Source: Escherichia coli (GTDB lineage: Bacteria; Pseudomonadota; Gammaproteobacteria; Enterobacterales; Enterobacteriaceae). From it: DNA of 64,000 nt. The position numbers and the translations under genes are program-made. Below the pieces are notes generated by a model. The model was not told the origin of the DNA and made no database searches. It saw only the letters and a program-made list of their open reading frames with translations. The stretch is from the NCBI GenBank assembly GCA_023061495.1, contig GCA_023061495.1_3643.1, one strand, 5' to 3'. Below are positions 5,965 through 43,478 of this stretch, piece by piece; within the stretch, counting starts at the first letter, position 1, and each line of letters starts with the position of its first letter.

Positions 5965-5998
5965 TTGACATATTTGTTTGTTTTTAGTATCCTATAAT
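5965..5998 (+). promoter_or_regulatory. possible promoter for the homing endonuclease gene (perfect hexamers, non-canonical spacing)
   Basis: TTGACA 5965-5970 and TATAAT 5993-5998, but spacer is 22 bp; an alternative TAGTAT at 5985-5990 gives 14 bp. Confidence 0.25.
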
Positions 5999-6014
5999 AA
6001 AGGAGGAGACAGTC

Positions 6015-7640
6015 ATGGCTAAATTGAGTGCAGAAAGGTTTATCGAAAAAGCTCGTAGGGTTCACGGAGATAAGTACGACTATTCTCTTATAGAATACAA
6101 AACATGCAAAGATAAGATAGAAATAGTCTGCAATACCTGTGGTAACCACTTCAACCAGACACCGGATAACCATATAAATCTAAAAAGAGGATGCCCTGTT
6201 TGTGGAGCTGAGAGATCTGCAAAATCAAGAAAGGGTAAGAAATTCCCCCATGAGCGTGGTAACAGGTGCACTACAGAAGAGTGGATCAAGAAGGTACTAA
6301 AAAGATATCCTGAAAATGCTGAAAAGTATGATTATAGTCATGTAGTGTACAAGACCTCTGGAGATAAGGTTGAGATTCATTGCAAAATGTGCGGAAGAAT
6401 AATGCACCAGAAACCTAGCAAGCATTTGTCAGGGCAAGGATGCAAGACTTGCGCAGCAAGATCTGTTTCTGCGAAAAAAGTTCCTAGCTTCCAAGAAATA
6501 GTTGAGAGATGTGTAGAAGTACATGGTAGTGATTATGAGTATTTTGAAGACTCTTATGTGAACACCTCAACACCTATGATGATGCGCCACAAAGAGTGTG
6601 GGAATATCTTCATGCAGCGTCCTGAATTCCATTACGGGAAAGGACAAGGATGCCCTCGTTGCTGTCGAAATCAGTCTAATGGTGAGAAAGAGATCCTGAC
6701 GTTCATTAAAAGTGTGTATAGCGGCGATATTGAAGAGAACGTGCGTATTCTGGGCAACTTTAAGGATCCTTCCAAGAAAAAGATGGAGCTGGACATTTAT
6801 GTTCCGGAGCTTAAGCTTGCTGTGGAATATAATGGTGCCTACTGGCACTCTGTAGACAGTAAGGGGAAATGGTACCACATCCTGAAAAGGAAGGCCTGTG
6901 AAAAACAAGGTATTCGCATGTTGTCTATCTGGGATTGTGATTGGCAGGATGCTCGGAAAAGACCTATCATTGAGAGATATCTCAAGAATGCTTTAGGAGT
7001 CAAAGACGAGAAGACCGTCTATGCCAGAAAGTGCACAGTTAAAGATGTGGACAATAAAACTTACCGTGACTTTATGGAGAAAAACCACATTCAAGGGTAT
7101 GCCCCCGCCAAGGAAGTGAAGAAGGGTCTGTTTACATCTGACGGCGAGCTGGTAGCTTGTATGAGTTTTAAAATACTGAAAAACAGAGATCAAAAGGTAA
7201 CCCCTTTCGTTATGTGGGACATGGTAAGGTATGCAACAAGCTGTAACGTTCCTGGTGGGCGTAGTAAGCTGTTTAAGCATATCCGAGAAGAGTTTAAGAT
7301 GGATCATGTTCAATCCTTCCTTGACAGAGATTACTTCACAGGCGTGTCCTATAAGGAGGAGGATGGCTGGATTTTGGCAGAGGACGATCAGGTGTCTACG
7401 AGCTTCTGGAGCTACCGTGGTGGCAGAATGCCAAGGCAGGCGTGGTGGAAGTCAAACATCCCAGAGACACTGAAGCATCTCGGGTTGGACGAGTCCTTAT
7501 ACGATCCTGAGAAAACACAAGAGTGGAATGCCAAAAATGCAGGCTGCTATATCCTTGAAAACAGTGGCAACTCTCGCTTTGAATGGCACAGTGATGAAGG
7601 TAAAAATGATCCTGCATACTTGGATTGGTTGAAAGGTTAA
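6015..7640 (+). CDS. free-standing homing endonuclease candidate: three zinc-ribbon repeats plus PD-(D/E)xK (DUF559/Vsr-like) nuclease core
   Basis: 541 aa; three ~60-aa repeats each with HGDKYDYS...C-x2-C...GCP-x-C; central motif ELDIYVPELKLAVEYNGAYWHS; AT-rich with AGA/ATA codons unlike flanking genes; inserted between tail tube and chaperone genes. Confidence 0.55.
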   Translation: MAKLSAERFIEKARRVHGDKYDYSLIEYKTCKDKIEIVCNTCGNHFNQTPDNHINLKRGCPVCGAERSAKSRKGKKFPHERGNRCTTEEWIKKVLKRYPENAEKYDYSHVVYKTSGDKVEIHCKMCGRIMHQKPSKHLSGQGCKTCAARSVSAKKVPSFQEIVERCVEVHGSDYEYFEDSYVNTSTPMMMRHKECGNIFMQRPEFHYGKGQGCPRCCRNQSNGEKEILTFIKSVYSGDIEENVRILGNFKDPSKKKMELDIYVPELKLAVEYNGAYWHSVDSKGKWYHILKRKACEKQGIRMLSIWDCDWQDARKRPIIERYLKNALGVKDEKTVYARKCTVKDVDNKTYRDFMEKNHIQGYAPAKEVKKGLFTSDGELVACMSFKILKNRDQKVTPFVMWDMVRYATSCNVPGGRSKLFKHIREEFKMDHVQSFLDRDYFTGVSYKEEDGWILAEDDQVSTSFWSYRGGRMPRQAWWKSNIPETLKHLGLDESLYDPEKTQEWNAKNAGCYILENSGNSRFEWHSDEGKNDPAYLDWLKG

Positions 7641-13912: not shown

Positions 13913-14728
13913 ATGGCTACGCTTTATAGTGATATATTGATGGACCCACAGACAGGCGATTTGGCGATAGACAAAGGTCTTGAGTTGATAGACTCAAACC
14001 AAGTAAGTCTGCGCCAGCGCCTGTGGATGAGGTTTAATACCTGGAAAGGGAGCTGGTACTTTGACGAGTTGTTTGGCTTCCCTTATATGGACTTTCTCAG
14101 TAAGAAGGTCATGAAGACTGTTCTTGATAACAAGATTATGGAAGTGGCAAGACAAGAGCCGGATGTGCTAAACATCATAAACTTCCAATCTACTATGGAT
14201 CGAAGATCGAGAACATATCAAGCGTTCTTTGAGGTTGTTACCAAGGAGAACGAGATTGTAAGACTTGCTTTCGTAGGTCTTGATCAGTTTACCTATCCAC
14301 AGCCTGATGCTGGGACAACCTCTCTCTGTGATGATGAAGGTTGGATTAAGTGGGCTAATAAACTGTACTACCTGATCAACTTTAGATTGCCTAGAACCGG
14401 GGATGCCACATGGTGGAACCAGTATGCCGGTCCTGAGATGGAAAACCCGATCCCTGTAGGCTCTCTGTTGACTCAGGATAAAGATCTGCTGATGACTGAG
14501 GCAGAACAAACCATTAACCGCAATACCTGGACGCTTGCTCCAGATGAGCGCGAATATTCTGGTGTTATTGCTACATCTAATGATGAGGCTATTGCCAACC
14601 AGTCTGACGTNNNNNNNNNNNNNNNNNNNNNNNNNNNNNNNNNNNNNNNNNNNNNNNNNNNNNNNNNNNNNNNNNNNNNNNNNNNNNNNNNNNNNNNNNN
14701 NNNNGGTCGTGCTATTGATGTTAACTAA
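13913..14728 (+). CDS. putative baseplate wedge protein (gp25/gpW-like N-terminal region); internal part masked by N
   Basis: 271 codons including a 94-nt N-run; N-terminal VSLRQRLWMRFNTWKGSWYFDELFGFPY resembles gp25/W-type baseplate proteins; reading frame preserved across the N-run. Confidence 0.4.
   Translation: MATLYSDILMDPQTGDLAIDKGLELIDSNQVSLRQRLWMRFNTWKGSWYFDELFGFPYMDFLSKKVMKTVLDNKIMEVARQEPDVLNIINFQSTMDRRSRTYQAFFEVVTKENEIVRLAFVGLDQFTYPQPDAGTTSLCDDEGWIKWANKLYYLINFRLPRTGDATWWNQYAGPEMENPIPVGSLLTQDKDLLMTEAEQTINRNTWTLAPDEREYSGVIATSNDEAIANQSDXXXXXXXXXXXXXXXXXXXXXXXXXXXXXXXXGRAIDVN
14611..14704. other. run of 94 N (masked or unresolved sequence) inside a CDS
   Basis: Literal N characters; flanking ORF remains in frame. 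Confidence 0.95.
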
Positions 14729-24475: not shown

Positions 24476-25131
24476 TGCCAATTGCAATGATTGATAACAT
24501 CGTTGCTTCTGCAAGATCTTCAAGTTATGACTGGAACGCATCCAAGGCAGCTCTGGCTGACAGCCTGAACACTGTTACCACCAGAACTCTGGATAAGATT
24601 TTCGAGGGCAACAAATCTTACAGAAGTCAGCAAGATAGACAAAAGCTTCTCAGATCTTCTGCTGCACCTTGCTCTGTAGTATATGGAAAGACACGCACAT
24701 CTGGATTGCTTGCGTTTTTGGAGCAGGACAGAGACAGAACCCTTCATTGTGCTATTGTTCTTGCCAATCACCCTCTGGAAGGTATAGAAGATATACTTAT
24801 CGACGGTAATCCTATTTCCTCGTATGGAGATTTGGTATCGTGGGAGCTGCATAACGACAGAAAAACCTCTGATCCTTTCATGGGCACACACTGCCCATCG
24901 TGGTCACCGGACATGATAGGTAGAGGGATCAGTTGGCTACGAGTCAGCTTCAGGTTTGACCCTAACAAGTTTCCTTTTGGGTTGCCAAACGTCACACTCG
25001 TCAAGGTTGGTAAAAAATGCNNNNNNNNNNNNNNNNNNNNNNNNNNNNNNNNNNNNNNNNNNNNNNNNNNNNNNNNNNNNNNNNNNNNNNNNNNNNNNNN
25101 NNNNNNNNNNNNNNNNAAAAAAATGCTATGA
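24475..25131 (+). CDS. tail-tip protein; either a separate gene or the N-terminal part of the J-like protein (unresolved because of N-run)
   Basis: RBS GGAGG then ATG 24475; frame-1 ORF runs into the N-run at 25021-25116 and stops four codons after it; the downstream J-like ORF is in another frame. Confidence 0.35.
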   Translation: MPIAMIDNIVASARSSSYDWNASKAALADSLNTVTTRTLDKIFEGNKSYRSQQDRQKLLRSSAAPCSVVYGKTRTSGLLAFLEQDRDRTLHCAIVLANHPLEGIEDILIDGNPISSYGDLVSWELHNDRKTSDPFMGTHCPSWSPDMIGRGISWLRVSFRFDPNKFPFGLPNVTLVKVGKKCXXXXXXXXXXXXXXXXXXXXXXXXXXXXXXXXKKML

Positions 25132-28100
25132 TCCTCGCACCAGTAAAGAGGTGTATACCAATAACGCTGCCTTGGTGATTCTGGACTATTTAAGAACATA
25201 CCTTAAATGTCCTGACGAAACCATCAACTGGGAGTCCTTCAAGGAGGCTGCCAACATATGCGACGAGGCTGTAAGAAACGCAGACGGAACCAGCGAGCGT
25301 CGTTACACCATTAATGGTGAGTTTGACATGGATGAAGCACCAGCGAGTATTATGGCAGAAATGCTGAAAGCTTGTGGTGCAGATCTTAGCTATGTAGCTG
25401 GTAAGTATGGTCTGCTGGTAGGTGCATACTATGGCCCGGCAACAATGACACTGAGTGAGGACTGTGTTTGCGGTGAGGTTAAGATCTATCCGGAAGCCTC
25501 TTTCGACAAGAGATCGAACACAATAACTGGCAGATTCACTAGTCCAACCAAAGGGTATTCTGAAACAGATTTTCCATCAGTGTTTGTCCCAGAGTGGATA
25601 GAGAAGGATGGAGAAAGAAAGATAATTGATATAGATTATCGTTTTGTTACCAGCCCTTATCAAGCTCAGCGTGTTTCTGCAATCTTCTTAAGACGTGCCC
25701 GAGCTGGCAGGATTATTGAAGTAACCTGCAATATGCGAGGTTTTAAATTTAAACCTGGGCGTTACGTTACGATGAATCTTCCAAGTATTGGTATAGTGGG
25801 CCAAGAAATGAGGGTTCTTGAATGGGAGTTCACCAAAAAGGGCGGTGTCAAGGTAAAACTCCGTCAAGATGCTAAAGAGTGGAATGATGCCACAGGGCAA
25901 CTTCCGGATTCTGGAGATGTGGATATTCCGATATCCCCGTCCGGCGTAGCTCAACCGCAAAACTTCAGATACTCTGTTCTTCAAGCTGGGGAAGTAACTC
26001 ATGGTGTTTTGGCTTGGGACAACGTTGGAACTTATGCTCAAAATATTGTGCAGGTAAGAAAGAACGGAGAGATTATTTGGACAGCACAGACAGTTGAGCA
26101 GTTTGTCCGCGTAGAAGGATTGACCAAAGGGTCATACACAGCAACCGTGGTTGCAACATCTTATAAAGGTGGTGTATCTCCAGAAGCTTACTGCGAGTTT
26201 AACATTCAAGCACCTGAAGCTCCTGTTTCTGTAGAAGTTAAGCAGGGATACTTTGCTATCACCTTGATTCCGCACAGCAGGGACTTAGCAAGTGTAAGCA
26301 CCCAGTATGATTTTTGGACATCTGGTATGACAAGGTTGCCGGACACAAGTGATGCAACCGTTACTTCAAAAGCCACCCGTATGGGTGTTGGTTCAACTTG
26401 GACATCTGAAGGTCTGCAGAACGATAAGATTTATTATTGGTATATTCGAACCACAAACGCTTTTGGTAGTTCTCAGTTTGTAGAATGCGCTGCACGCTGC
26501 TACACCTCTATTGAAGATTTGATGCCTCAGATAGATGCTGAATTTAAAAAGACAGAAACTTATAAAGAGTTGATGAGCACTTTAGATTCCTCTATCGAGG
26601 AGGTTGAAAATCGTGTCACAGAACTTAACAGGTACATGGATGGTAGAGTTGACGAGGCTTTTGACCGCATGGAAGGTGAGTTCTCTAGAGTAGACAAGCT
26701 GTATGCTCAGTTGGGGGATAGGGTTGGAATATTCATCCAAGAAACCCACGACAACTTCCAGGACGTTAATGGAACGCTTACCACTCTAGACCAGAAACTG
26801 GTAGCCACTCAGAACAAGTTTGCAGATGATCTTTCTAAAGAAAGTGGTAAGCTGACTTCTCTAATACAGACCACCAACAAAGCTACAACCGATCTGTTAA
26901 ATCAGAAAACTGAAGCTTTGGACGAGAAGATTGTTTCAACAAGGGGTGAATTGGAAGATGCTTTGGCACAGGAAAGCTCTGAGCTGAACTCTCTGATTGT
27001 TTCAACCAATAAAACGACTACAGATCTCCTTAATCGGAAAACCGAGGCTTTAGACAATAAGCTGACAGCAACGAAAGGTGAGTTGACCAACAATCTGCAA
27101 AATGAGAGTGCTAAACTATCATCCTTGATTGAGTCAACCAACAAATCCACCACTGATCTTCTTAATAAGAAAACAGAGGCGTTGGATGAAAAACTGGTTG
27201 CTGCACAGGGCGAGTTGACTGAGCAGATCGGAGATGTTGAAAAAGGCTATCTGGCTGGTGATAAGAGCCTAGAGGGCAAGTTGAATACTCAAAGATCTGA
27301 GTTGGATGCGAGCATTCTGAGCACTAACCAGGCCACTGTGGACTTGCTGAACAGAACTTCTGAGACTCTTGACCAGAAGATTAGCCAGACCAACGCCACA
27401 GTGTCCAAAAACTACACCACGCTTGATGGTAAGATAAACACCGCCAAGTCTGATCTTAATACGTTGATTTCTACCACCAACAAGGCCACAACTGACCTAT
27501 TGAATCAGAAAACGGCAGCTTTGACTGAGCAGTTAACCACTGCTAAAGGGCAGATTACAACCAACACCAATAACATTACCGGGTTGGATAATAAGCTGAC
27601 TCAGACTAAGAAAGAATTGTCTGCGAATATTTCTGAAACTAATAAGTCTACTGTTGACCTTATTAATGGCACAGCGTCAGCTATTCGTCAAGAACTTGCT
27701 GTTGCTAAGCAGGAGATTATTGATGATGTTGGAGATGTGACCGAACTCAGAGCTGCAGTGGCTACAACATCTAAGGCTGTGACCGACTTAGAGGGCAAAG
27801 TAAATGCTCAATGGGGCACAAAAATACAGGTAGACTCCGCAGGGAATAAGTATGTGGCAGGTATCCAGTTAGGCATGGAAGGCTCTGGAGGCCAAGTTCA
27901 GTCATATTTCATGGTTAGCGCAAACAACTTTGCGGTATACAACCCAGGCAATGGAACAGCAACCCTTGCTTTCGCAATCAAGAACAACCAAGCGTTCTTG
28001 AAAGACGCTTTTATAGAGAACGGCACGATCTCTTCTGCCAAGATCGCGCAAGAAATTTCGTCAAACAACTACGATGGCAACGGGTACCACAAATACGGTT

Positions 28101-35128: not shown

Positions 35129-35159
35129 AGTCCTTAAGGAATTTTCTCAGGAGAACGTG

Positions 35160-35615
35160 ATGACTAAACCAGTTATCCCTCTTGATATTTGGGCCAATCA
35201 GGATGTTGTGCTTGAAAATACGGGAGAATTGAATAAGTCCCAACCAAAAAAAGAAGAGAGATTGAAAGGTTGGGATATGACACAAAGAGTGGCATGTGAG
35301 GTTGTTAACTTTGAACTTCACATGCTTTCTGCGTGNNNNNNNNNNNNNNNNNNNNNNNNNNNNNNNNNNNNNNNNNNNNNNNNNNNNNNNNNNNNNNNNN
35401 NNNNNNNNNNNNNNNNNNNNNNNNNNNNNNNGGGTGTTGAAGATGTAAGGATAGCAAACCGCTTCAGAACCACCTACAGAGAATCAAGAGTATACCCTGG
35501 GCATGTAATGTGCTCCGGCAATTACGCCTATAAACACCCGTATCAAGGTGACTATTGGACTGGTGCTATTCAAAAATTTGTAAACGGTCAATGGATTACC
35601 ATATCTTATGCTTAA
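35160..35615 (+). CDS. short tail fibre paralogue (middle masked by N)
   Basis: ATG 35160 preceded by CAGGAGA; shares N- and C-terminal motifs (YWTGAIQKFVNGQWITISYA) with the 33104 gene; frame preserved across a 96-nt N-run. Confidence 0.5.
   Translation: MTKPVIPLDIWANQDVVLENTGELNKSQPKKEERLKGWDMTQRVACEVVNFELHMLSAXXXXXXXXXXXXXXXXXXXXXXXXXXXXXXXXXGVEDVRIANRFRTTYRESRVYPGHVMCSGNYAYKHPYQGDYWTGAIQKFVNGQWITISYA
35336..35431. other. run of 96 N (masked or unresolved sequence) inside a CDS
   Basis: Literal N characters; flanking ORF remains in frame. Confidence 0.95.
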
Positions 35616-35900: not shown

Positions 35901-37646
35901 ATGGCGCAAGACATGACAAGCTTCGAGCAGGCGGTAGATCAAGTAATTGTTGATTCTGAACGTTTGCACTTGATTGTCAACGGTAACGCTGTGGATGAAG
36001 TTGTCGTAGAGGATGGGACCACTATCCCTACGGTACGAAAAGCCATGCTTGACACCCTTTATTTTAAAACGCCACCAATCCCTTGGGCGTATGGTGCATC
36101 CACAACAGTTTTTAACCAGTTGTATGAGTTTAAAGGGGATACAGGCACTCAGTGGTGGTACGCCCCAGCAGCATCAAAATCTAACCCAGTTAGGATGCCA
36201 GCAGATCCTTCACAATCTCCGAACTGGAGATTATATACCGATTCTGCAGTAATGGCAAAATACTACGCAAAACTTAACAGCCCAAGGTTCGAAGGTGACC
36301 CGAGAGTACCTACACCCCCAATGGACGATAAGTCTGAGTCTATAGCAAACACAGAGTTTGTTGTTGACTATGTGGATAGCATATTTAAAGCCATGGAGGG
36401 GATGAAAGTTACTGTAGGGTCTTTGGTGGTAAAAGGTCTTACAGAACTAGCTAACACCATAGTTGGGGGCACCCTTACCTTACATGGGCCTGTTAATGGA
36501 GCAGATTCTACTGCACGCTTCAGGAACCTAATCCTCACGGCAAATACTTCTACACTTACTTTTGCGTGGAGCGATCCTAAGCATGCAGACTGGAGAAGCA
36601 CAGAGCTGCAACCTCATGAAGTGTCCACCCACAGGGTTATAGCTGACACTATAACCTCTGGGAAACCAGTGGCTAATAATAACGATGTACATTTTGATGG
36701 TCTTGGTAATAACTTTTTTGACTACGTGTACATTCGTGGTAATGCCATGAAGGCAGCAACCGAACCTACATTGCAGGTCGATGGGACCGCCAGGGTTAAG
36801 AACCTTGAGGTGACAGGCACCGTTACAGGGATAACCTACTCTGTTGATGGTACCATGATCTACCCTAGCTATATTGAAAGCACGGGTGATGCATTGATAA
36901 ATGGCGATTTAGAGGTTGGTGGGTCTGTAGTTATTCGAGGTACAGCCTCTATCCAAAACATAGCTCTGAACACTCTGAGAGTCAATGAGCGTGCAACTTT
37001 TGAAGGGGAAGGGCTTACAGCTAACAAAGGCATAATTACCGAGCTGACAACAACTACTTTAACTGCAACAACTGCAAACTCTGAAAACTGCAACGTTACC
37101 AGAAACTTGCAGGTAAACGGCGATGTTAGCTTAAATGACAACGGCACAGGAACAACACGCCTTCATAACCTTGAAATATCCGGCACAGTGACTGGGTGGC
37201 TGCCAGACTTCTCTAATGTCAATTTTGTTTGTAATGGTATTAACTCCAGCGGTAAGATAACCACCTCTCAAGGAATTGAGGCTGGTAAAACCATCACTGC
37301 CCCTACTTTCCACGCAGGAAAAGTAGACTTTGACTTAGAGGAGGTTGACGCATCTAGTGGGACATGGACACCTAACGGGCAGGCCAGTATGTATGTTGTC
37401 CACGCTAAAGGGGATTTTACAATAGGGCAGTGGCCTGGGACATCAGCGGAAGATAAACCTTATCCATTCACTGCAGTTATCTATGTCATTCAGGATGCCG
37501 TAGGTCACAACGTGACTTTGCACGATAAGTATGCTATCCTGTCGGCAACACCTGTTATTAACAACAAGGCTAACAGTGTTACCCTGCTGCAATTAACATA
37601 TTGTGGTGTTGGTGATATCGTAGACGTAGTAATTGCACAACGTTAA
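35901..37646 (+). CDS. tail fibre/tailspike protein
   Basis: 581 aa, RBS AAGGAGAAA; repeated beta-strand-like segments in the C-terminal half; terminator downstream. Confidence 0.5.
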   Translation: MAQDMTSFEQAVDQVIVDSERLHLIVNGNAVDEVVVEDGTTIPTVRKAMLDTLYFKTPPIPWAYGASTTVFNQLYEFKGDTGTQWWYAPAASKSNPVRMPADPSQSPNWRLYTDSAVMAKYYAKLNSPRFEGDPRVPTPPMDDKSESIANTEFVVDYVDSIFKAMEGMKVTVGSLVVKGLTELANTIVGGTLTLHGPVNGADSTARFRNLILTANTSTLTFAWSDPKHADWRSTELQPHEVSTHRVIADTITSGKPVANNNDVHFDGLGNNFFDYVYIRGNAMKAATEPTLQVDGTARVKNLEVTGTVTGITYSVDGTMIYPSYIESTGDALINGDLEVGGSVVIRGTASIQNIALNTLRVNERATFEGEGLTANKGIITELTTTTLTATTANSENCNVTRNLQVNGDVSLNDNGTGTTRLHNLEISGTVTGWLPDFSNVNFVCNGINSSGKITTSQGIEAGKTITAPTFHAGKVDFDLEEVDASSGTWTPNGQASMYVVHAKGDFTIGQWPGTSAEDKPYPFTAVIYVIQDAVGHNVTLHDKYAILSATPVINNKANSVTLLQLTYCGVGDIVDVVIAQR

Positions 37647-37654
37647 TATATCTA

Positions 37655-37680
37655 ACCGCTCCTGACGGGGCGGTTTTCTT
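37655..37680 (+). terminator. rho-independent terminator
   Basis: ACCGCTCC-TGAC-GGGGCGGT hairpin followed by TTTTCTT. Confidence 0.55.
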
Positions 37681-37694
37681 ATCTGGAGAACACA

Positions 37695-40600
37695 ATGCTT
37701 CCAATCCCTTTGCTAAAACTTGGTCGTCATTTCCTCGATAAGAGGGGTGGAATTAAGGAACTTGCTGTTCTGTCATACCCAATAGACAACAGTGATGGCA
37801 CAAGCACTACAGTACCCTATGTAAATAGCTTAGCTATACTTTTTGATGATGGTCAACTTAATATCACGGGATATAACAGGTTCGGAGAGTGCCGCACTGG
37901 GGATCTTGACACGATAAACTATCCCAACGAGGCTGCCTGGAACGTTGATCATGTGTGGAGAGCAGACCGTGCGTTTGTGATCCGAACTTTTGATAACCAG
38001 TTTTTCTACATCGGCTGCACTGCAGGGCTTATTGGGTCTGATGCTGCAGGCGGTAATGATGTTTGTGTAAGAGAGTGGACACCTCTTCCTGAACAGATCG
38101 TTAAAGGGTTGCACCTTGACACCCACCCAGAGCGCCTTATTGAGGTGATGGGTGGTATTAACAACACTGTCTGGGTTATTGCAGAGGCAGAAGGCACAGG
38201 CATACTGAATCTGTATGGGTCTGGTAACAACACCTACGGATCTTTGCATGTAGATAAAAATCAGCATGCAACCCCTGTAAAGATCGGTGAGACATCGGAA
38301 AATCCTGAAACAGGCCCTTGGAAAAACCCAAGCATTAACTGCGAGGTGCATGACAACTCTGTTATTTTCGGTGGTCCTAGAGGTTTCTGGATTGCTGGAT
38401 ACGACTTTCTGAGAAATAACAGTAGAAACGACCTTGTTTGGCCTCCTGTGCAGATTACTCGTAACGATTTGAGAGGCATTCCTGCAGATGAGGAGTGGAA
38501 AGGGTTTATGTGTGGTCCTAACGGGGCAATAATTGCCACACAGAGGATGCACAAACCTAATGACCAGCAGCTTGTTAACGTATTCTACGGGCAAGACGTC
38601 TGGGGAGATGACACATGGCGTTCCTTAAATATCACCTACACCCATGAGGTGATAATGGCTCGTGGATACGGAACAAGTGGCATTTTCTTCAATAATGGCA
38701 CTAAGCAGTATCGTGGGTTCTCTCGCAACTTGTGTAATGATATTGGTGCACAATCTGCAAACAATAGCCCTAGGGCCAATTTTATCCACTATCAAGCTCT
38801 TGCTACAGCTAAATATGTTGAGCAACGCCTGCCAGTTAGCTGGACAGAGAGTGTTTATTTCCAAGGCATCCACAGAGAAGGTTTCTTAGGGACCTTTACT
38901 GTTGTTAATGGTAAACTTTGGTGGTCAGGCATCCCGAGGGGAAGTTTTGCAGGATCTAACAACCTGTTTGGCGGCAGACTTAATAGTCAGGGGTTCACAG
39001 AGGTTCCTGAGAATTGGTATAAAAATGTCCCAGTAGACAGTTGGGGTGTTGATGATATTTTCGATGTTAACGGTGTTAGCAGCGTTAGCAATATCTACAT
39101 TGGTGACACGGTCAAGATGAAACTGAAGCCTCAGCCAGAGGGGGCTACGTTCATTATTGACAAAATTGAACTGGTAAATGCTGCAGGCACGGTTGTTACA
39201 GATGCAAATTACCAATTCTCCGCCAACTGGAACCACGGTGGGGCCAACGAAGTTGTTGTTACCCAATATAACAGAAATGTTAACAGACGTGGACTGTACT
39301 CTGTAAAAATAACCTATCATGACAAACATGGCACAGGCAGAACCCACACAACAAGGACTTTGAACTGGAACACTATCGTCCCAGCGTACCCGTCTGATGG
39401 TAAATGGCATACTGTCGGTAGAAACAAACAGTTCCATGTCAACGATACTGTATACTTTGGGTTGAATGCGGCCCAGCCTGCAGTAGAAGGGGATACATCG
39501 TATATGGTCAGACTCCATAGAATGGATGCTGGATCAGTAACTTATGATGTTACTCAAGAGATTTATAATCAGCGACGAAATACCTATGATAACTTGGTGC
39601 AGACACAGGCCTTATGGGAGTTCAACCCAAACGGCAGAGGTGGTAAAATGTTGCAGGTCAACGAACAAAACGGGACATCGTTGACGGTTCACGAACACCC
39701 AAACCCTTGGCCTGATCCTGGAAAACCTAACTCTGGTGCTCGTACATTAAAAATTGTCAGCCATGACGTAGGATATTTCGGAATACGCTGGGAAGCCACA
39801 GTAAGATATGCTGACGGGACGACAAACAATATTGGGATCACCCTTGGTGGCACTAGTGAGGATAACTCACTGAAAATTGCCTACACTCCTAGAGGCATTT
39901 CTATTGATAATATGGATGTTGTTCGCAACGGTTACGGGGATGTGAACATCAAAGTCACCCTTGGTGAACATCTTGGTGGGGAAAGAATCATCATGTATGC
40001 CTTTGATCATGACCCTCGCACCAACGGAACATATGCAGACCAGGCGTGGAGTTACCTGATAAGTGCACCTGAGCCAAATACTAAAGAATTCTACTACGGT
40101 ATGAAGCGCAATGTGTGCAAGAAAACAGGGACACATGACTGGATTGCAATCTGCGTTAAGGATGAGCGTACTGCTTGGAACGAACCTGTTAATAGATGGT
40201 TCGTAGGTATTCCCACCCGAAGTGATAAATACGTTGAAGAATATATTGTGTGCATGGGCGGCACCAACCTTAATATGTGTTGGAACGAGGATGCAAACAA
40301 CAAATACTCTGATTATGACTATATGCGGGACTATTCTTGCAATCAGTGGTTTAACCAACCTGGATATGCTGATCGACAGGCAAGAGTGAATCCTGCAATC
40401 TTCACAGATACTCAGGTTTTCTTGACAAAACAGGCTAACGAGGTTCAGACCTTCAAGAACAAATACGATCCTAACAAGTGGTTTTATAACTGTTATGGCG
40501 CATTTTTCTGGGGTCCTGGCGAACTACCTAATGGAGGATCTTGCTTCGAGGCTGCAACTTACGCCAGTGACAGGTTTATGGGGCAGGTTAAGAAGTACAA

Positions 40601-43430
40601 GATAATCCCTGGTCCTGAAACTCTGGGCAATGCCGTTGACCCTTATATCGTCATGACCGTGCTGAGATCAAACATGGATGGGACATCCATGTCTATGCAA
40701 GTTCCAGTAACAAACGGGTACAAACGTGTTGTGATGATCATTAAGTGCGACTTAATAGGTAAGCAAGTTCTTGCAGAAAACGGAACCTCAACACATTTAT
40801 TCGAGACTGCTCTGCATTATCAGTTTGCTGATTCACCTTTTGCAGGGGATAAGAGAATATCTGATACAGACAATGCTCGATGCAAGAAATTTATGCTTGG
40901 TGGTGGATGGTGGTGGTATGAATTTGATTTAACAGACAAATTCACCGACACGTCTAAAGTGGTGACAGGGCTTCGTCTAGATCTTGGCGAAAACATGCAC
41001 AAAAGTGTTTGTGATGGCACCTACGGTGACCCAACAATCTACTTAAAGTATGTTTCTTTTGAGCACCCAGAGGATGTCGTTTATGGTCCAAAACTGAGAC
41101 TGTTTGGCAATTGGATTGCTAAAGACAGGGCAGGTATGGGTAAAAAGGTGAGAGGGTTCTTAGTTGATGCAGGAACAGAAGACATGTTGGTTAATGCAGT
41201 GTGGCCTGAATTACCGGGAACTCAGTGGGACAATTCTGCTAAGTCTATAAACTGGTTCAATATCCACAGAGCTATGTGGGCAACTAACTGCTATCTGTGG
41301 AAAGAGTTGAATGACGGCGCTTTCGGGTTTACTGGTGGCAGAAGAATGGCAATCATTTGCTGGACAACGCTGCAGAGATGTTATGACCATGACTACGAGA
41401 TTGGAGGCAGGGCATGGAAAAATATAAGGGATAGAATCATAACTAACTTTGCAGATCCTAACGGTGGCGGGGCGTATGGTTTCGACTGCAGCAGGCTTAT
41501 CCATTTGAACGGATCTTCGGCCTATAAGAAAGAAGGCTACTCTGGGGCCATGATTGAATGGGGCTTGGTAAAAGATTCTCGTGTGTTGATGGGTCAGCAA
41601 CTTGCTGCTGCAATAGGACCGAACGCAGTACAATCTGTTAAACCAGCATGGTTCGATATCCCATTATGGTCCTCTGGAACACCAGGAACTGCTGCAATCA
41701 ACCCTACCACTGGGGATCTGGAAATCTCCTGGGAGGACCTGAAGCAGGTCGGTGGCTGGGATAAGGCAGGGTACCAGGTGCAATGGTGGAGATCTGACGG
41801 ATCATTGGCGGCTGATGAGTTTGTTAAGGACAATTTCTACACCATGTCCTCTGCAAAAGCACAGCAATTGTTTGGTCAGGCCACTCCGTCAACGATCACC
41901 ATGTCCATGTGCTGTAAAGACACCAGGACTGGAGCTCTGGGGCCAAGGGTTGCTAAAGTTTTCTCAGGTATTAAATGGAATCTCCCTGTTCAAAGTGTTT
42001 CATGGAAGCAAATAGGTGATAACAAGCTGCTGGTTACCCCAGCTTGTCAGTTCAGCGCAACTCTTAACGTTGATCCTGCTGTTGCGGCAAACTCAGCTAA
42101 AGCTTCTGACTTCTCTGTGTCTAACACTGCTATGGCAGATGTGAGGAAGATTGACACGCTGAACGCCAGAATTACCTGTAAAAACACTTATGGCACATTC
42201 CAGATCATCAACAACTTCACAGATGCTGATTCTAAGGTAGTGAGGACAGCAAGCCAAACTCTGAGTTTAGGAACTCTGGCCTACGCGGCCCTGATCACTG
42301 AACAGTCGGCAACACTCCAAGGAGGCGGTGTAGGCAAGTCCATTGCAACACCTGTGTGGAAGCCAAATGAGTGGGTTGTGTTTGATTTAACTGTGGACTT
42401 CTCCAGCGATAATAACTGGACATGGGTAAGGAATTNNNNNNNNNNNNNNNNNNNNNNNNNNNNNNNNNNNNNNNNNNNNNNNNNNNNNNNNNNNNNNNNN
42501 NNNNNNNNNNNNNNNNNNNNNNNNNNNNNNNNNTTCTTGTCACAACTGATGGGTGGCCCAAACTCAGTTAGTGATAGCCAAGACTCCACTGACCCGAGTG
42601 TGTTTCAGGTGGGTAAAACTCACCCAGAAACTGGGGCACCGTTGCCTGACAGGAAGTATGCTTTGGTTTGCATCTCTTACGGAAAAGCAGATGTAACCTT
42701 CTCAGGGACACACACATATAACGGCACTTACAACTTCTCTAAAAAGTACAGCCTCAAGGCAGGTAACATTGTAGACGAGGTTGGTGCGTTGTATAATCCA
42801 GGAAACGGGATAGGGATTGTAGGTGGTAAACTGCAGATGCAGGAACCTTCTATTACCCCTTCCAATGTGCCAGGAATCAGAAAGACTTGGGAAAGTAGTA
42901 ATACCAACATTGCAACAGTGGATGCTACCACAGGGCTGGTAACATTTAAAGCTACTGGGAATGTCACTATAAAGTTTGTAGTTACAGATGATGCAGGGCG
43001 CAAAACGTCTTCAACATCTTTTACTGTCAAACAGATGGCACCACAGTGGAGAATGTGGATAGGTACAGCAACAAACGGGGCATATCCTAATCCGGCAGGG
43101 ACTTCTGGTATGAAGACTTTCTCTACAAGCAAGCCGATGGAGTACGGCAGCGGTCCTAAGGTAGGGCAGATGGTGTACTTTGGTGCGTATATTCCTGAAA
43201 TTATAGGGCTTCCGAGAAGTCAGCTTCAGTTGCTGTTTGGGGCTGGTGTTGACGATCTTGCCACTTTCGGGTATAGAGACAACATCGATGCTGCAAGGAG
43301 TTCAGGATGGGTAGGGTTCAGAATGGAGTCTGGAAAGGAAGGCAGGATTCTAGGGACAGCCTCTATAGGTGTTATGTTCCCTGGTGACCAGCAGTATCGT
43401 CTAGAAGCCTACGCAACCTTTTCTCGTTAA
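37695..43430 (+). CDS. giant virion-associated protein (1911 aa) with bacterial Ig-like (Big_2-type) domain; part masked by N
   Basis: Single ORF preserved in frame across a 98-nt N-run; segment PSNVPGIRKTWESSNTNIATVDATTGLVTFKATGNVTIKFVVTDDAGRKTSSTSFTVK resembles Big_2 domains; ends at a bidirectional terminator. Confidence 0.55.
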   Translation: MLPIPLLKLGRHFLDKRGGIKELAVLSYPIDNSDGTSTTVPYVNSLAILFDDGQLNITGYNRFGECRTGDLDTINYPNEAAWNVDHVWRADRAFVIRTFDNQFFYIGCTAGLIGSDAAGGNDVCVREWTPLPEQIVKGLHLDTHPERLIEVMGGINNTVWVIAEAEGTGILNLYGSGNNTYGSLHVDKNQHATPVKIGETSENPETGPWKNPSINCEVHDNSVIFGGPRGFWIAGYDFLRNNSRNDLVWPPVQITRNDLRGIPADEEWKGFMCGPNGAIIATQRMHKPNDQQLVNVFYGQDVWGDDTWRSLNITYTHEVIMARGYGTSGIFFNNGTKQYRGFSRNLCNDIGAQSANNSPRANFIHYQALATAKYVEQRLPVSWTESVYFQGIHREGFLGTFTVVNGKLWWSGIPRGSFAGSNNLFGGRLNSQGFTEVPENWYKNVPVDSWGVDDIFDVNGVSSVSNIYIGDTVKMKLKPQPEGATFIIDKIELVNAAGTVVTDANYQFSANWNHGGANEVVVTQYNRNVNRRGLYSVKITYHDKHGTGRTHTTRTLNWNTIVPAYPSDGKWHTVGRNKQFHVNDTVYFGLNAAQPAVEGDTSYMVRLHRMDAGSVTYDVTQEIYNQRRNTYDNLVQTQALWEFNPNGRGGKMLQVNEQNGTSLTVHEHPNPWPDPGKPNSGARTLKIVSHDVGYFGIRWEATVRYADGTTNNIGITLGGTSEDNSLKIAYTPRGISIDNMDVVRNGYGDVNIKVTLGEHLGGERIIMYAFDHDPRTNGTYADQAWSYLISAPEPNTKEFYYGMKRNVCKKTGTHDWIAICVKDERTAWNEPVNRWFVGIPTRSDKYVEEYIVCMGGTNLNMCWNEDANNKYSDYDYMRDYSCNQWFNQPGYADRQARVNPAIFTDTQVFLTKQANEVQTFKNKYDPNKWFYNCYGAFFWGPGELPNGGSCFEAATYASDRFMGQVKKYKIIPGPETLGNAVDPYIVMTVLRSNMDGTSMSMQVPVTNGYKRVVMIIKCDLIGKQVLAENGTSTHLFETALHYQFADSPFAGDKRISDTDNARCKKFMLGGGWWWYEFDLTDKFTDTSKVVTGLRLDLGENMHKSVCDGTYGDPTIYLKYVSFEHPEDVVYGPKLRLFGNWIAKDRAGMGKKVRGFLVDAGTEDMLVNAVWPELPGTQWDNSAKSINWFNIHRAMWATNCYLWKELNDGAFGFTGGRRMAIICWTTLQRCYDHDYEIGGRAWKNIRDRIITNFADPNGGGAYGFDCSRLIHLNGSSAYKKEGYSGAMIEWGLVKDSRVLMGQQLAAAIGPNAVQSVKPAWFDIPLWSSGTPGTAAINPTTGDLEISWEDLKQVGGWDKAGYQVQWWRSDGSLAADEFVKDNFYTMSSAKAQQLFGQATPSTITMSMCCKDTRTGALGPRVAKVFSGIKWNLPVQSVSWKQIGDNKLLVTPACQFSATLNVDPAVAANSAKASDFSVSNTAMADVRKIDTLNARITCKNTYGTFQIINNFTDADSKVVRTASQTLSLGTLAYAALITEQSATLQGGGVGKSIATPVWKPNEWVVFDLTVDFSSDNNWTWVRNXXXXXXXXXXXXXXXXXXXXXXXXXXXXXXXXXFLSQLMGGPNSVSDSQDSTDPSVFQVGKTHPETGAPLPDRKYALVCISYGKADVTFSGTHTYNGTYNFSKKYSLKAGNIVDEVGALYNPGNGIGIVGGKLQMQEPSITPSNVPGIRKTWESSNTNIATVDATTGLVTFKATGNVTIKFVVTDDAGRKTSSTSFTVKQMAPQWRMWIGTATNGAYPNPAGTSGMKTFSTSKPMEYGSGPKVGQMVYFGAYIPEIIGLPRSQLQLLFGAGVDDLATFGYRDNIDAARSSGWVGFRMESGKEGRILGTASIGVMFPGDQQYRLEAYATFSR
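42436..42533. other. run of 98 N (masked or unresolved sequence) inside a CDS
   Basis: Literal N characters; flanking ORF remains in frame. Confidence 0.95.
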
Positions 43431-43449
43431 CAAGGGGGTAAATAAAAAA

Positions 43450-43476
43450 GGGGCCAAACGGCCCCTTTCTTTTTAT
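43450..43476. terminator. bidirectional rho-independent terminator between convergent transcription units
   Basis: GGGGCC-AAAC-GGCCCC hairpin flanked by an A-run upstream and a T-run downstream; separates the + strand structural genes from the - strand early genes. Confidence 0.7.
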
Positions 43477-43478
43477 AG

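Follow-up and report, generated by a model that had tools for sequence, protein, structure and literature searches.

The giant gene and its genomic context

The giant gene analysed in this work is located at 37695-43430 on the + strand of a 64-kb window, which is the whole stretch of DNA taken from contig GCA_023061495.1_3643.1. The window was identified by its sequence as that of a Vequintavirus, an rV5/FV3-like E. coli myovirus. The giant gene is a single uninterrupted open reading frame (ORF) that starts with ATG. It is the longest ORF in the window, as had been stated in an earlier prediction made by a model from the sequence alone (hereafter the original prediction), and the next longest ORF encodes 1478 amino acids (aa). 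The chance of an open frame of ~1880 codons is ~e^-90 when stop codons occur at ~3/64. No paralogs of the giant protein were found within the window using BLASTP.

The coding sequence (37695-43430, + strand) comprises 1911 codons, including 33 that consist of Ns. A ribosome-binding site (GGAG; 37685-37688, + strand) was read from the sequence 7 nt upstream of the ATG. The gene directly upstream (35901-37646, + strand) encodes a tail fibre of 581 aa that is the ortholog of rV5 gp28 and bas49_0040 and the probable docking partner of the giant protein. Both genes are separated by a terminator-like hairpin (37654-37675, + strand) that corresponds to the annotated t028 of rV5. The stop codon of the giant gene is followed by a bidirectional intrinsic terminator (43441-43478) that consists of an A-run, GGGGCC-AAAC-GGCCCC, and a T-run. 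This terminator marks the convergence with a minus-strand gene block and corresponds to t026/t027 of rV5, and the annotation of PVP-SE1 exhibits the same arrangement. The ORF does therefore end at a bidirectional terminator, as had been read earlier.

The giant gene was identified through its sequence as the ortholog of rV5 gp27, bas49_0041, and bas54_0041, so it is already known and annotated. Its region shares 97.5% identity with phage YP-6 and 91-96% with ~100 other genomes, and the gene occurs in more than 110 sequenced phages. The product of rV5 gp27 is listed as a 'conserved hypothetical protein' of 1878 aa with a Big_2 domain, and bas49_0041 and bas54_0041 are labelled in BASEL as 'lateral tail fiber protein with intimin domain'. 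Both annotations had been overlooked in the original prediction. The gene of the window is orthologous to rV5 gp27 with a full-length profile match, a DNA identity of 92-97%, identical synteny, and the same flanking terminators, and it differs by a run of 98 Ns that adds 33 codons. The PHROG family phrog_15684 was matched over its full length, with 3748 bits for aa 1-1580 against positions 1-1580 and 655 bits for the C-terminal part against positions 1582-1878. The giant protein is 97% identical to the database cluster P0001 (820 member sequences), and its family consists of just 16 clusters.

From the prohead protease to the end of the tail-fibre block, the window has the gene order of the BASEL phage EmilHeitz. 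Every family member in the database whose context could be checked exhibits the same synteny. The giant gene or its counterpart closes the tail-fibre block in Vequintavirus, Phapecoctavirus, and Seunavirus and precedes the strand switch and the bidirectional terminator. The synteny thus agrees with the proposed placement of the gene in a virion or tail module. Approximately 15 GenBank records (MG0656xx) are named 'Campylobacter phage' with C. jejuni as host, yet they are 92-94% identical to the giant gene. The genomes in those records are 135-143 kb, and their host assignment looks doubtful.

The length of 1911 aa that had been given to the giant protein was not sustained, since the N run had been overlooked. 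The 98 Ns (42436-42533) are extra compared to every relative. They occupy codons 1581-1613 with the same frame on either side, and they are the source of the 33 spurious X residues in the translation. The flanks of the run are contiguous in YP-6, SYGMH1, and EmilHeitz (...AGGAAT TGC TTGTCA...), so 99 bases of the window are extra and almost wholly unreadable. The first codon downstream of the run is TTC (Phe) in the window and TGC (Cys) in the relatives. The orthologs are 1875-1878 aa long. The phrog_15684 profile has 1878 positions that were matched at 1-1580 and 1582-1878 with nothing missing across the gap. The real product is most likely a protein of 1878 aa and 208 kDa, judging from these alignments. 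We also considered whether the Ns hide a real in-frame insertion of 99 nt. No relative and no family profile carries such an insertion, and the other N runs of the window clearly do not keep length, both of which argue against it.

Domain architecture of the giant protein

Sequence matches and structural models suggest that the giant protein is a multidomain protein of ~208 kDa that consists of a conserved RCC1-like N-terminus, beta-sandwiches, a family-specific centre, and a C-terminal Ig-like chain. The models were built using AlphaFold2 (AF2) in two segments, aa 1-770 with a mean predicted local distance difference test score (pLDDT) of 40 and aa 760-1878 with a mean pLDDT of 52. The 97%-identical ortholog P0001 was used to bridge the N run in the second segment. 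The models are weak because only 7-8 sequences from a family of 16 clusters were used per alignment. They were used only for consistent classes of fold matches, and no atomic detail is claimed from them. The segment-wise structure prediction that had been recommended earlier thus gave consistent Ig-type, carbohydrate-binding module (CBM)-type, and RCC1-type fold matches, but at low mean pLDDT.

The RCC1-like (beta-propeller-type) domain is located at 37695-39029 (+ strand; aa 1 to ~445) and is the most conserved part of the family. Even in members of the family with an overall identity of 45%, its ~440 aa are 70-84% identical, and its alignment columns are almost invariant across the family. 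The domain matched phrog_11922 'tail protein' (E 6e-24) and phrog_4219 'RCC1' (E 1.2e-6). None of the Pfam RCC1 thresholds (PF00415, PF13540, and PF25390) was passed by the domain, for which the best score was 13.7 bits to RCC1_2 (cut-off 22). Divergent family members matched WD40_RLD at E 0.002-0.003, far under the cut-off of 150 bits. Two homologs from other genera, ZCKP1 gp122 (23.0 bits) and PVP-SE1 gp40 (36.1 bits), exceed the PF00415 cut-off of 21.7 bits, and both match the RCC1-like domain at E 1e-10. Using BLASTP, aa 1-197 of the giant protein are 40% identical to ZCKP1 gp122 (E 3e-27) and aa 393-440 are 35% identical, and the match to the 604-aa PVP-SE1 gp40 is weaker. When the N-terminal domain was the sole query of a word-indexed search, all the matches were truncated forms.

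Nearly all top Foldseek matches of the N-terminal model are propellers of the RCC1 superfamily (UVR8, WBSCR16, Kti13, HERC1/2, RCC2, and RCC1), at E 4e-4 to 5e-3 and TM ~0.2 from a model with pLDDT 40. No significant hhalign match was found between internal blade repeats in aa 40-450, so a complete seven-bladed propeller is not demonstrated. The sequence and model evidence moderately supports an RCC1-like assignment for the N-terminal ~440 aa. The motifs YGSGNNTYG (aa 174-182) and NGKLWWSG (aa 405-412), from which propeller-like repeats had been suggested, are present and both lie in family-invariant columns. The suggestion stands as far as an RCC1-like domain is concerned, through the PHROG matches, the Pfam matches of homologs, and Foldseek, but the blade repeats are not significant and there is no direct Pfam pass.

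The RCC1-like domain is followed by a beta-rich region (39042-39974, + strand; aa ~450-760) that is variable within the family and has at least one predicted Ig-like sandwich (aa ~450-560). The strands modelled by AF2 in aa 450-560 have pLDDT 50-73, and this segment acquired single Ig-domain matches in Foldseek. The equivalent region of the homologs acquired weak matches to Bact_surface_Ig-like. For the central region (39975-41714, + strand; aa 761-1340), relatives were detected only within the family. This region includes a beta-sandwich that was modelled with confidence (40569-41066, + strand; aa 959-1124) and a predicted helical block (41070-41708, + strand; aa 1126-1338) that was modelled at pLDDT ~25 and has many invariant polar and aromatic residues. 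The invariant residues of the centre include E1162-D1163, N1186-W-F-N-x-H1191-R, and E1288-W-G. No relatives of the central ~500 aa outside the 16-cluster family were found in Pfam, PHROGs, NCBIfam, PDB sequences, and the profile search of 1.84 billion representatives. In the latter search, the giant protein's only non-family matches were of Big_2 type. PHROG scans of four middle sub-segments returned nothing beyond the family, and PDB sequence and profile searches with aa 1-1580 returned no match. A polysaccharide-lyase reading, based on a resemblance of the invariant NWFNxHRAMW motif, was dropped since no search supported it.

The C-terminal ~550 aa model as a chain of Ig-like beta-sandwiches that includes Big_2. 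The start of this chain (41715-42434, + strand; aa 1341-1580) is predicted from AF2 secondary structure and Foldseek. The most variable stretch of the family is aa 1450-1550, and identity within the family drops to 12-40% over aa 1450-1878. The Big_2 domain (bacterial Ig-like, group 2; PF02368) is located at 42849-42992 (+ strand), and its score of 36.5 bits exceeds the Pfam gathering cut-off of 22.8. It covers residues 1719-1766 in the 1911-aa numbering (residues 106-153 of the C-terminal part), in agreement with the Big_2-type domain that had been placed near residue 1720, and the threshold is also passed in clusters P0001 and P0002. The distal end of the protein is a predicted beta-sandwich of ~120 aa (43056-43427, + strand) with AF2 strands at pLDDT 50-72 and two allele groups in the genus. 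The C-terminal 298 aa are confined to Vequintavirus, where they exhibit either ~96% or ~79% identity. The C-terminal 290 aa matched phrog_215 'structural protein with Ig domain' (E 3.6e-48), a family that is filed under head and packaging. In Foldseek, the model of aa ~1340-1878 matched tandem-Ig arrays such as NUP210, cadherins, the S-layer proteins Sap and SbsB, and a tail protein of phage SU10. The C-terminal model also matched CBM folds.

The Big_2 domain is the basis of the 'intimin domain' label in the database. The only NCBIfam match was to the intimin model NF033627, which scored 25.1 bits over 39 residues of one Ig domain, and its cut-off is 1400, so the giant protein is no intimin. 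On the sequence scores, the label means merely a Big_2-type Ig-like domain. Pfam, PHROG, NCBIfam, and PDB searches detected no part of the protein with a coiled coil, a triple beta-helix, an S74 chaperone, or a match to a fibre-shaft family. The models exhibit globular beta-sandwiches and short helices, and neither they nor the sequence show any likeness to the shaft of a classical trimeric fibre.

Proposed role in the tail-fibre apparatus

The 581-aa fibre belongs to the PHROG tail-fibre families phrog_4549 and phrog_15437, and the orthologous neighbours of the giant gene match Pfam Phage_phiTE_241_N/C. The gene directly upstream of the giant gene or its counterpart encodes a fibre in all three genera. 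The fibre of the window matches PVP-SE1 gp41 over its full length (44% identity), and its aa 477-581 are 51% identical to ZCKP1 gp121 (E 4e-27, BLASTP). The C-terminal ~105 aa (37329-37643) are the only part kept in Phapecoctavirus, and the C-terminal ~100 aa are the sole part common to the three genera, with 51-58% identity where the rest is unrelated. On the other side of the junction, ZCKP1 gp122 'tail protein' (Phapecoctavirus, 888 aa) and PVP-SE1 gp40 (Seunavirus, 604 aa) are similar to the giant protein. Both are likewise encoded by the last gene of the tail-fibre block, both exhibit an RCC1-like head with downstream Big_2 domains, and next to both genes is a fibre gene whose product ends in the same conserved ~100 aa. 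However, the giant protein is two to three times longer, and ~1200 aa of it (the extra beta-sandwiches and the orphan centre) have no counterpart in either of the shorter proteins. Its C-terminal module is specific to Vequintavirus.

The co-conservation of the fibre C-terminus and the RCC1-like head indicates that the modules flanking the junction are inherited together while the bodies are exchanged. The head and the C-terminal knob of the fibre are thus candidates for a portable docking interface that the three genera have in common. From this co-conservation across the gene junction, we infer that the giant protein may dock via its N-terminal domain on the distal end of the 581-aa fibre or on a shared site.

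The ortholog bas54_0041 was reported by HIDEN-SEQ transposon mapping of phage Bas54 to be among the fibre genes that tolerate disruption on K-12, where plaques still form when bas54_0041 is disrupted (10.1101/2025.11.20.689424), and its orthology to the giant gene was confirmed in this work. The gene is therefore not required to infect E. coli K-12 or to produce infective virions. Some fibre genes of Bas54 are reported to be conditionally essential on clinical isolates, although which ones is unstated (10.1101/2025.11.20.689424). Disrupted alleles were also identified. The YP-6 allele has an additional T (+1) in a T-homopolymer at the equivalent of window position 38882. The Logan contig SRR22133733 carries a TGG>TGA change at codon 558 and an intact frame over the remaining 1318 codons, and a product cut at codon 558 defines a cluster of 77 sequences. 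These alleles are consistent with dispensability and are either real loss-of-function variants or sequencing errors.

We favour, with a probability of roughly 0.55, the reading that the giant protein is an accessory glycan-binding adhesin of the tail-fibre apparatus, with an RCC1-like anchor and a variable chain that aids adsorption. This reading is based on the family match, the synteny, the constant head and variable body, the co-conservation, the adhesin-type folds, and the dispensability. The conserved N-terminal domain would serve as the anchor of the giant protein on the tail-fibre apparatus, for which the C-terminal knob of the upstream fibre is the most likely site. The variable Ig-like/CBM-like chain would extend outward, as suggested by aa 1450-1550 and the C-terminus being the most variable parts and by the two C-terminal allele groups, and would bind surface polysaccharides with low affinity. 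Candidate ligands would be capsule, O-antigen, or similar glycans, and possibly mucus glycans. Such binding would improve adsorption to certain hosts or in certain environments, and the giant protein would be no part of the contraction trigger. RCC1-like proteins have been detected as virion components by mass spectrometry (MS) in related genera (PMC11370258).

A bolder and distinctly tentative form of this reading describes the giant protein as a monomeric 'tentacle' of ~200 kDa, whose RCC1-like propeller would sit on the distal knob of the neighbouring trimeric fibre to form a branched two-protein appendage. The swappable lectin-like chain and the orphan, possibly catalytic centre would then set a conditional host range or mucus adherence. 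If this is true, the propeller-knob pair would be a portable docking interface common to Vequintavirus, Phapecoctavirus, and Seunavirus.

Several points weigh against an accessory adhesin. Virion MS of rV5 lists gp27 and a later comparison repeats the listing, but the identification consists of three non-tryptic or semi-tryptic peptides with 3.1% coverage and preliminary ranks (SpR) of 9 and 14 for two of them (PMC3606486), so incorporation into the virion is regarded as unproven. Cryogenic electron microscopy (cryo-EM) of Bas49 and Bas54 shows density for only three fibres near the baseplate, although nine fibre proteins are annotated (PMC12143355). The giant protein or a homolog was not located in the cryo-EM of Bas49, Bas54, phi92, and phiTE. 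No ligand, binding assay, or host-range phenotype has been linked to the giant gene. The docking is proposed from co-conservation alone, a pattern that could equally reflect recombination breakpoints. The hairpin at 37654-37675 is directly upstream of the giant gene, so expression may be low. As a separate observation on the MS data, the low-coverage proteins gp1, gp27, and gp228 in Additional file 5 of the rV5 study all depend on non-tryptic and poorly ranked peptides (PMC3606486), and later papers cite the list as established structural proteins.

The BASEL annotation would make the giant protein a classical homotrimeric lateral tail fibre, one of three phi92-type baseplate sets, that is attached to the wedge and has a C-terminal receptor-binding tip. 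We regard this as unlikely. The gene does lie in the fibre block, the N-terminus is conserved while the C-terminus is variable, and HIDEN-SEQ groups bas54_0041 with 'bona fide tail fiber genes' (10.1101/2025.11.20.689424). However, the shaft and chaperone families of such fibres are absent from the Pfam, PHROG, and PDB matches described above, the models and matches are monomer-type Ig, CBM, and RCC1 folds, and the RCC1-like N-terminal module is no known baseplate adaptor. The densities fitted in Bas49, Bas54, and phi92 have also been assigned to other proteins. Among the three suggestions of the original prediction (long fibre, decoration protein, or injected effector), the long fibre nevertheless comes closest, although the evidence favours an adhesin-like chain of beta-sandwiches over a trimeric fibre.

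Somewhat less likely again is a Hoc-like decoration or whisker of the capsid or neck that would adhere weakly to mucus or environmental glycans without host recognition. Big_2 Ig-like domains are typical of decoration proteins, and the PDB matches include the decoration protein gp29 and a BIG2-domain capsid protein. The phrog_215 match of the C-terminal 290 aa (head and packaging), the dispensability in the laboratory, and the fact that cryo-EM did not show the giant protein at the baseplate would also fit. Against these stand the position of the gene as the last of the tail-fibre block and ~35 kb away from the head genes, the presence of a separate small head-decoration protein (bas49_0007), and the N-terminal module that travels with the C-terminal module of a tail fibre in three genera. 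Hoc binds the capsid with its C-terminal end, whereas the conserved end of the giant protein is the N-terminus. The least probable reading is that the giant protein is no stable virion component at all and is a late protein that is either soluble or loosely associated, for example an effector or an enzyme that acts on envelope polysaccharides through the orphan centre. The noise-level MS evidence, the terminator directly upstream, the invariant polar and aromatic residues of the orphan central ~500 aa, and the glycosidase or deacetylase domains of several neighbouring fibre genes are in its favour. Yet no enzyme family was matched in Pfam, NCBIfam, PDB sequences, and the search of 1.84 billion sequences, the pLDDT of the helical block is only ~25, and the architecture and the synteny correspond to those of a structural adhesin. 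Inspection of the N-terminus revealed neither a signal peptide nor a capsid-targeting feature, and no support was found for the injected effector that had been suggested.

The accessory-adhesin reading can be compared with other systems. Ig-like (Big_2) accessory domains occur on T4 Hoc, the C-terminal domain of lambda gpV, and T5 pb6 (Fraser et al. 2006, as cited in PMC7344957). There, a core structural protein carries the Ig domain as a small appendage, whereas the predicted Ig-like chain makes up most of the giant protein, a dedicated protein of 208 kDa that has an RCC1-like head. Intimin, invasin, and FdeC adhesins and the S-layer proteins Sap and SbsB/SbsC resemble the giant protein in their beads-on-a-string Ig-like domains, and the Big_2 domain is a sequence match to the D-domains of intimin. 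Unlike the intimin-type adhesins, the giant protein lacks a beta-barrel anchor, a LysM domain, and a C-type lectin tip. The receptor-binding proteins of staphylococcal phages phi11 and 80alpha reportedly have a five-bladed glycan-binding propeller platform inside a trimer. Both systems are phage tail proteins with a beta-propeller-type domain, but in the giant protein this domain is RCC1-like, N-terminal, and at the conserved end.

The phages related to rV5 are frequent in cocktails for therapy and food safety, where they are valued for a broad host range that has been attributed to an unusually large set of fibres, although which gene builds which fibre is still unclear (PMC8594841). This work adds a corrected length, a critical assessment of the 'intimin' label and the proteomics, the RCC1-like assignment, the orphan centre, and the docking hypothesis. 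These additions leave the classification of the gene unchanged. The docking and glycan-binding ideas could guide host-range engineering in rV5-like phages.

N runs and other differences from related genomes

Four N runs were identified in the window (14611-14704, 25021-25116, 35336-35431, and 42436-42533) with lengths of 94, 96, 96, and 98. Compared to Bas49, two of the N junctions add exactly 99 nt, both in-frame for their ORF, and the 99 nt of the junction at 14.6 kb include an unmatched ACGT. Another junction adds ~105 nt with a flank duplication of 9-10 nt, and one run replaces 684 bp. In this comparison, the N runs behave like scaffold spacers or masked foreign inserts, unlike masked phage sequence. 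Of the three runs outside the giant gene, two lie at sites where the sequence of relatives is continuous or the flanks overlap. The runs do not preserve length, so the assembly of the window is gapped or scaffolded. Most of the second short-tail-fibre paralog (rV5 gp30/bas49_0038, 347 aa) is gone at 35157-35615, where 684 bp are replaced by 96 Ns. The gap at 35336-35431 is probably an assembly collapse between two paralogous short-fibre genes.

Two further differences from Bas49 were identified. An insertion of ~1.65 kb (5971-7618) is located between the tail-tube gene and the next gene. It holds an ORF (6015-7640) of 541 aa whose only match is a sub-threshold one to a treble-clef zinc finger (DUF4379), and this ORF may be a mobile or homing-type gene. 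The segment at 26646-27083 has no BLASTN match to Bas49. It lies inside a fibre gene that encodes 1256 aa with FN3 (ortholog of bas49_0031), and the mismatch fits the strong allelic variation that has been reported for this gene.

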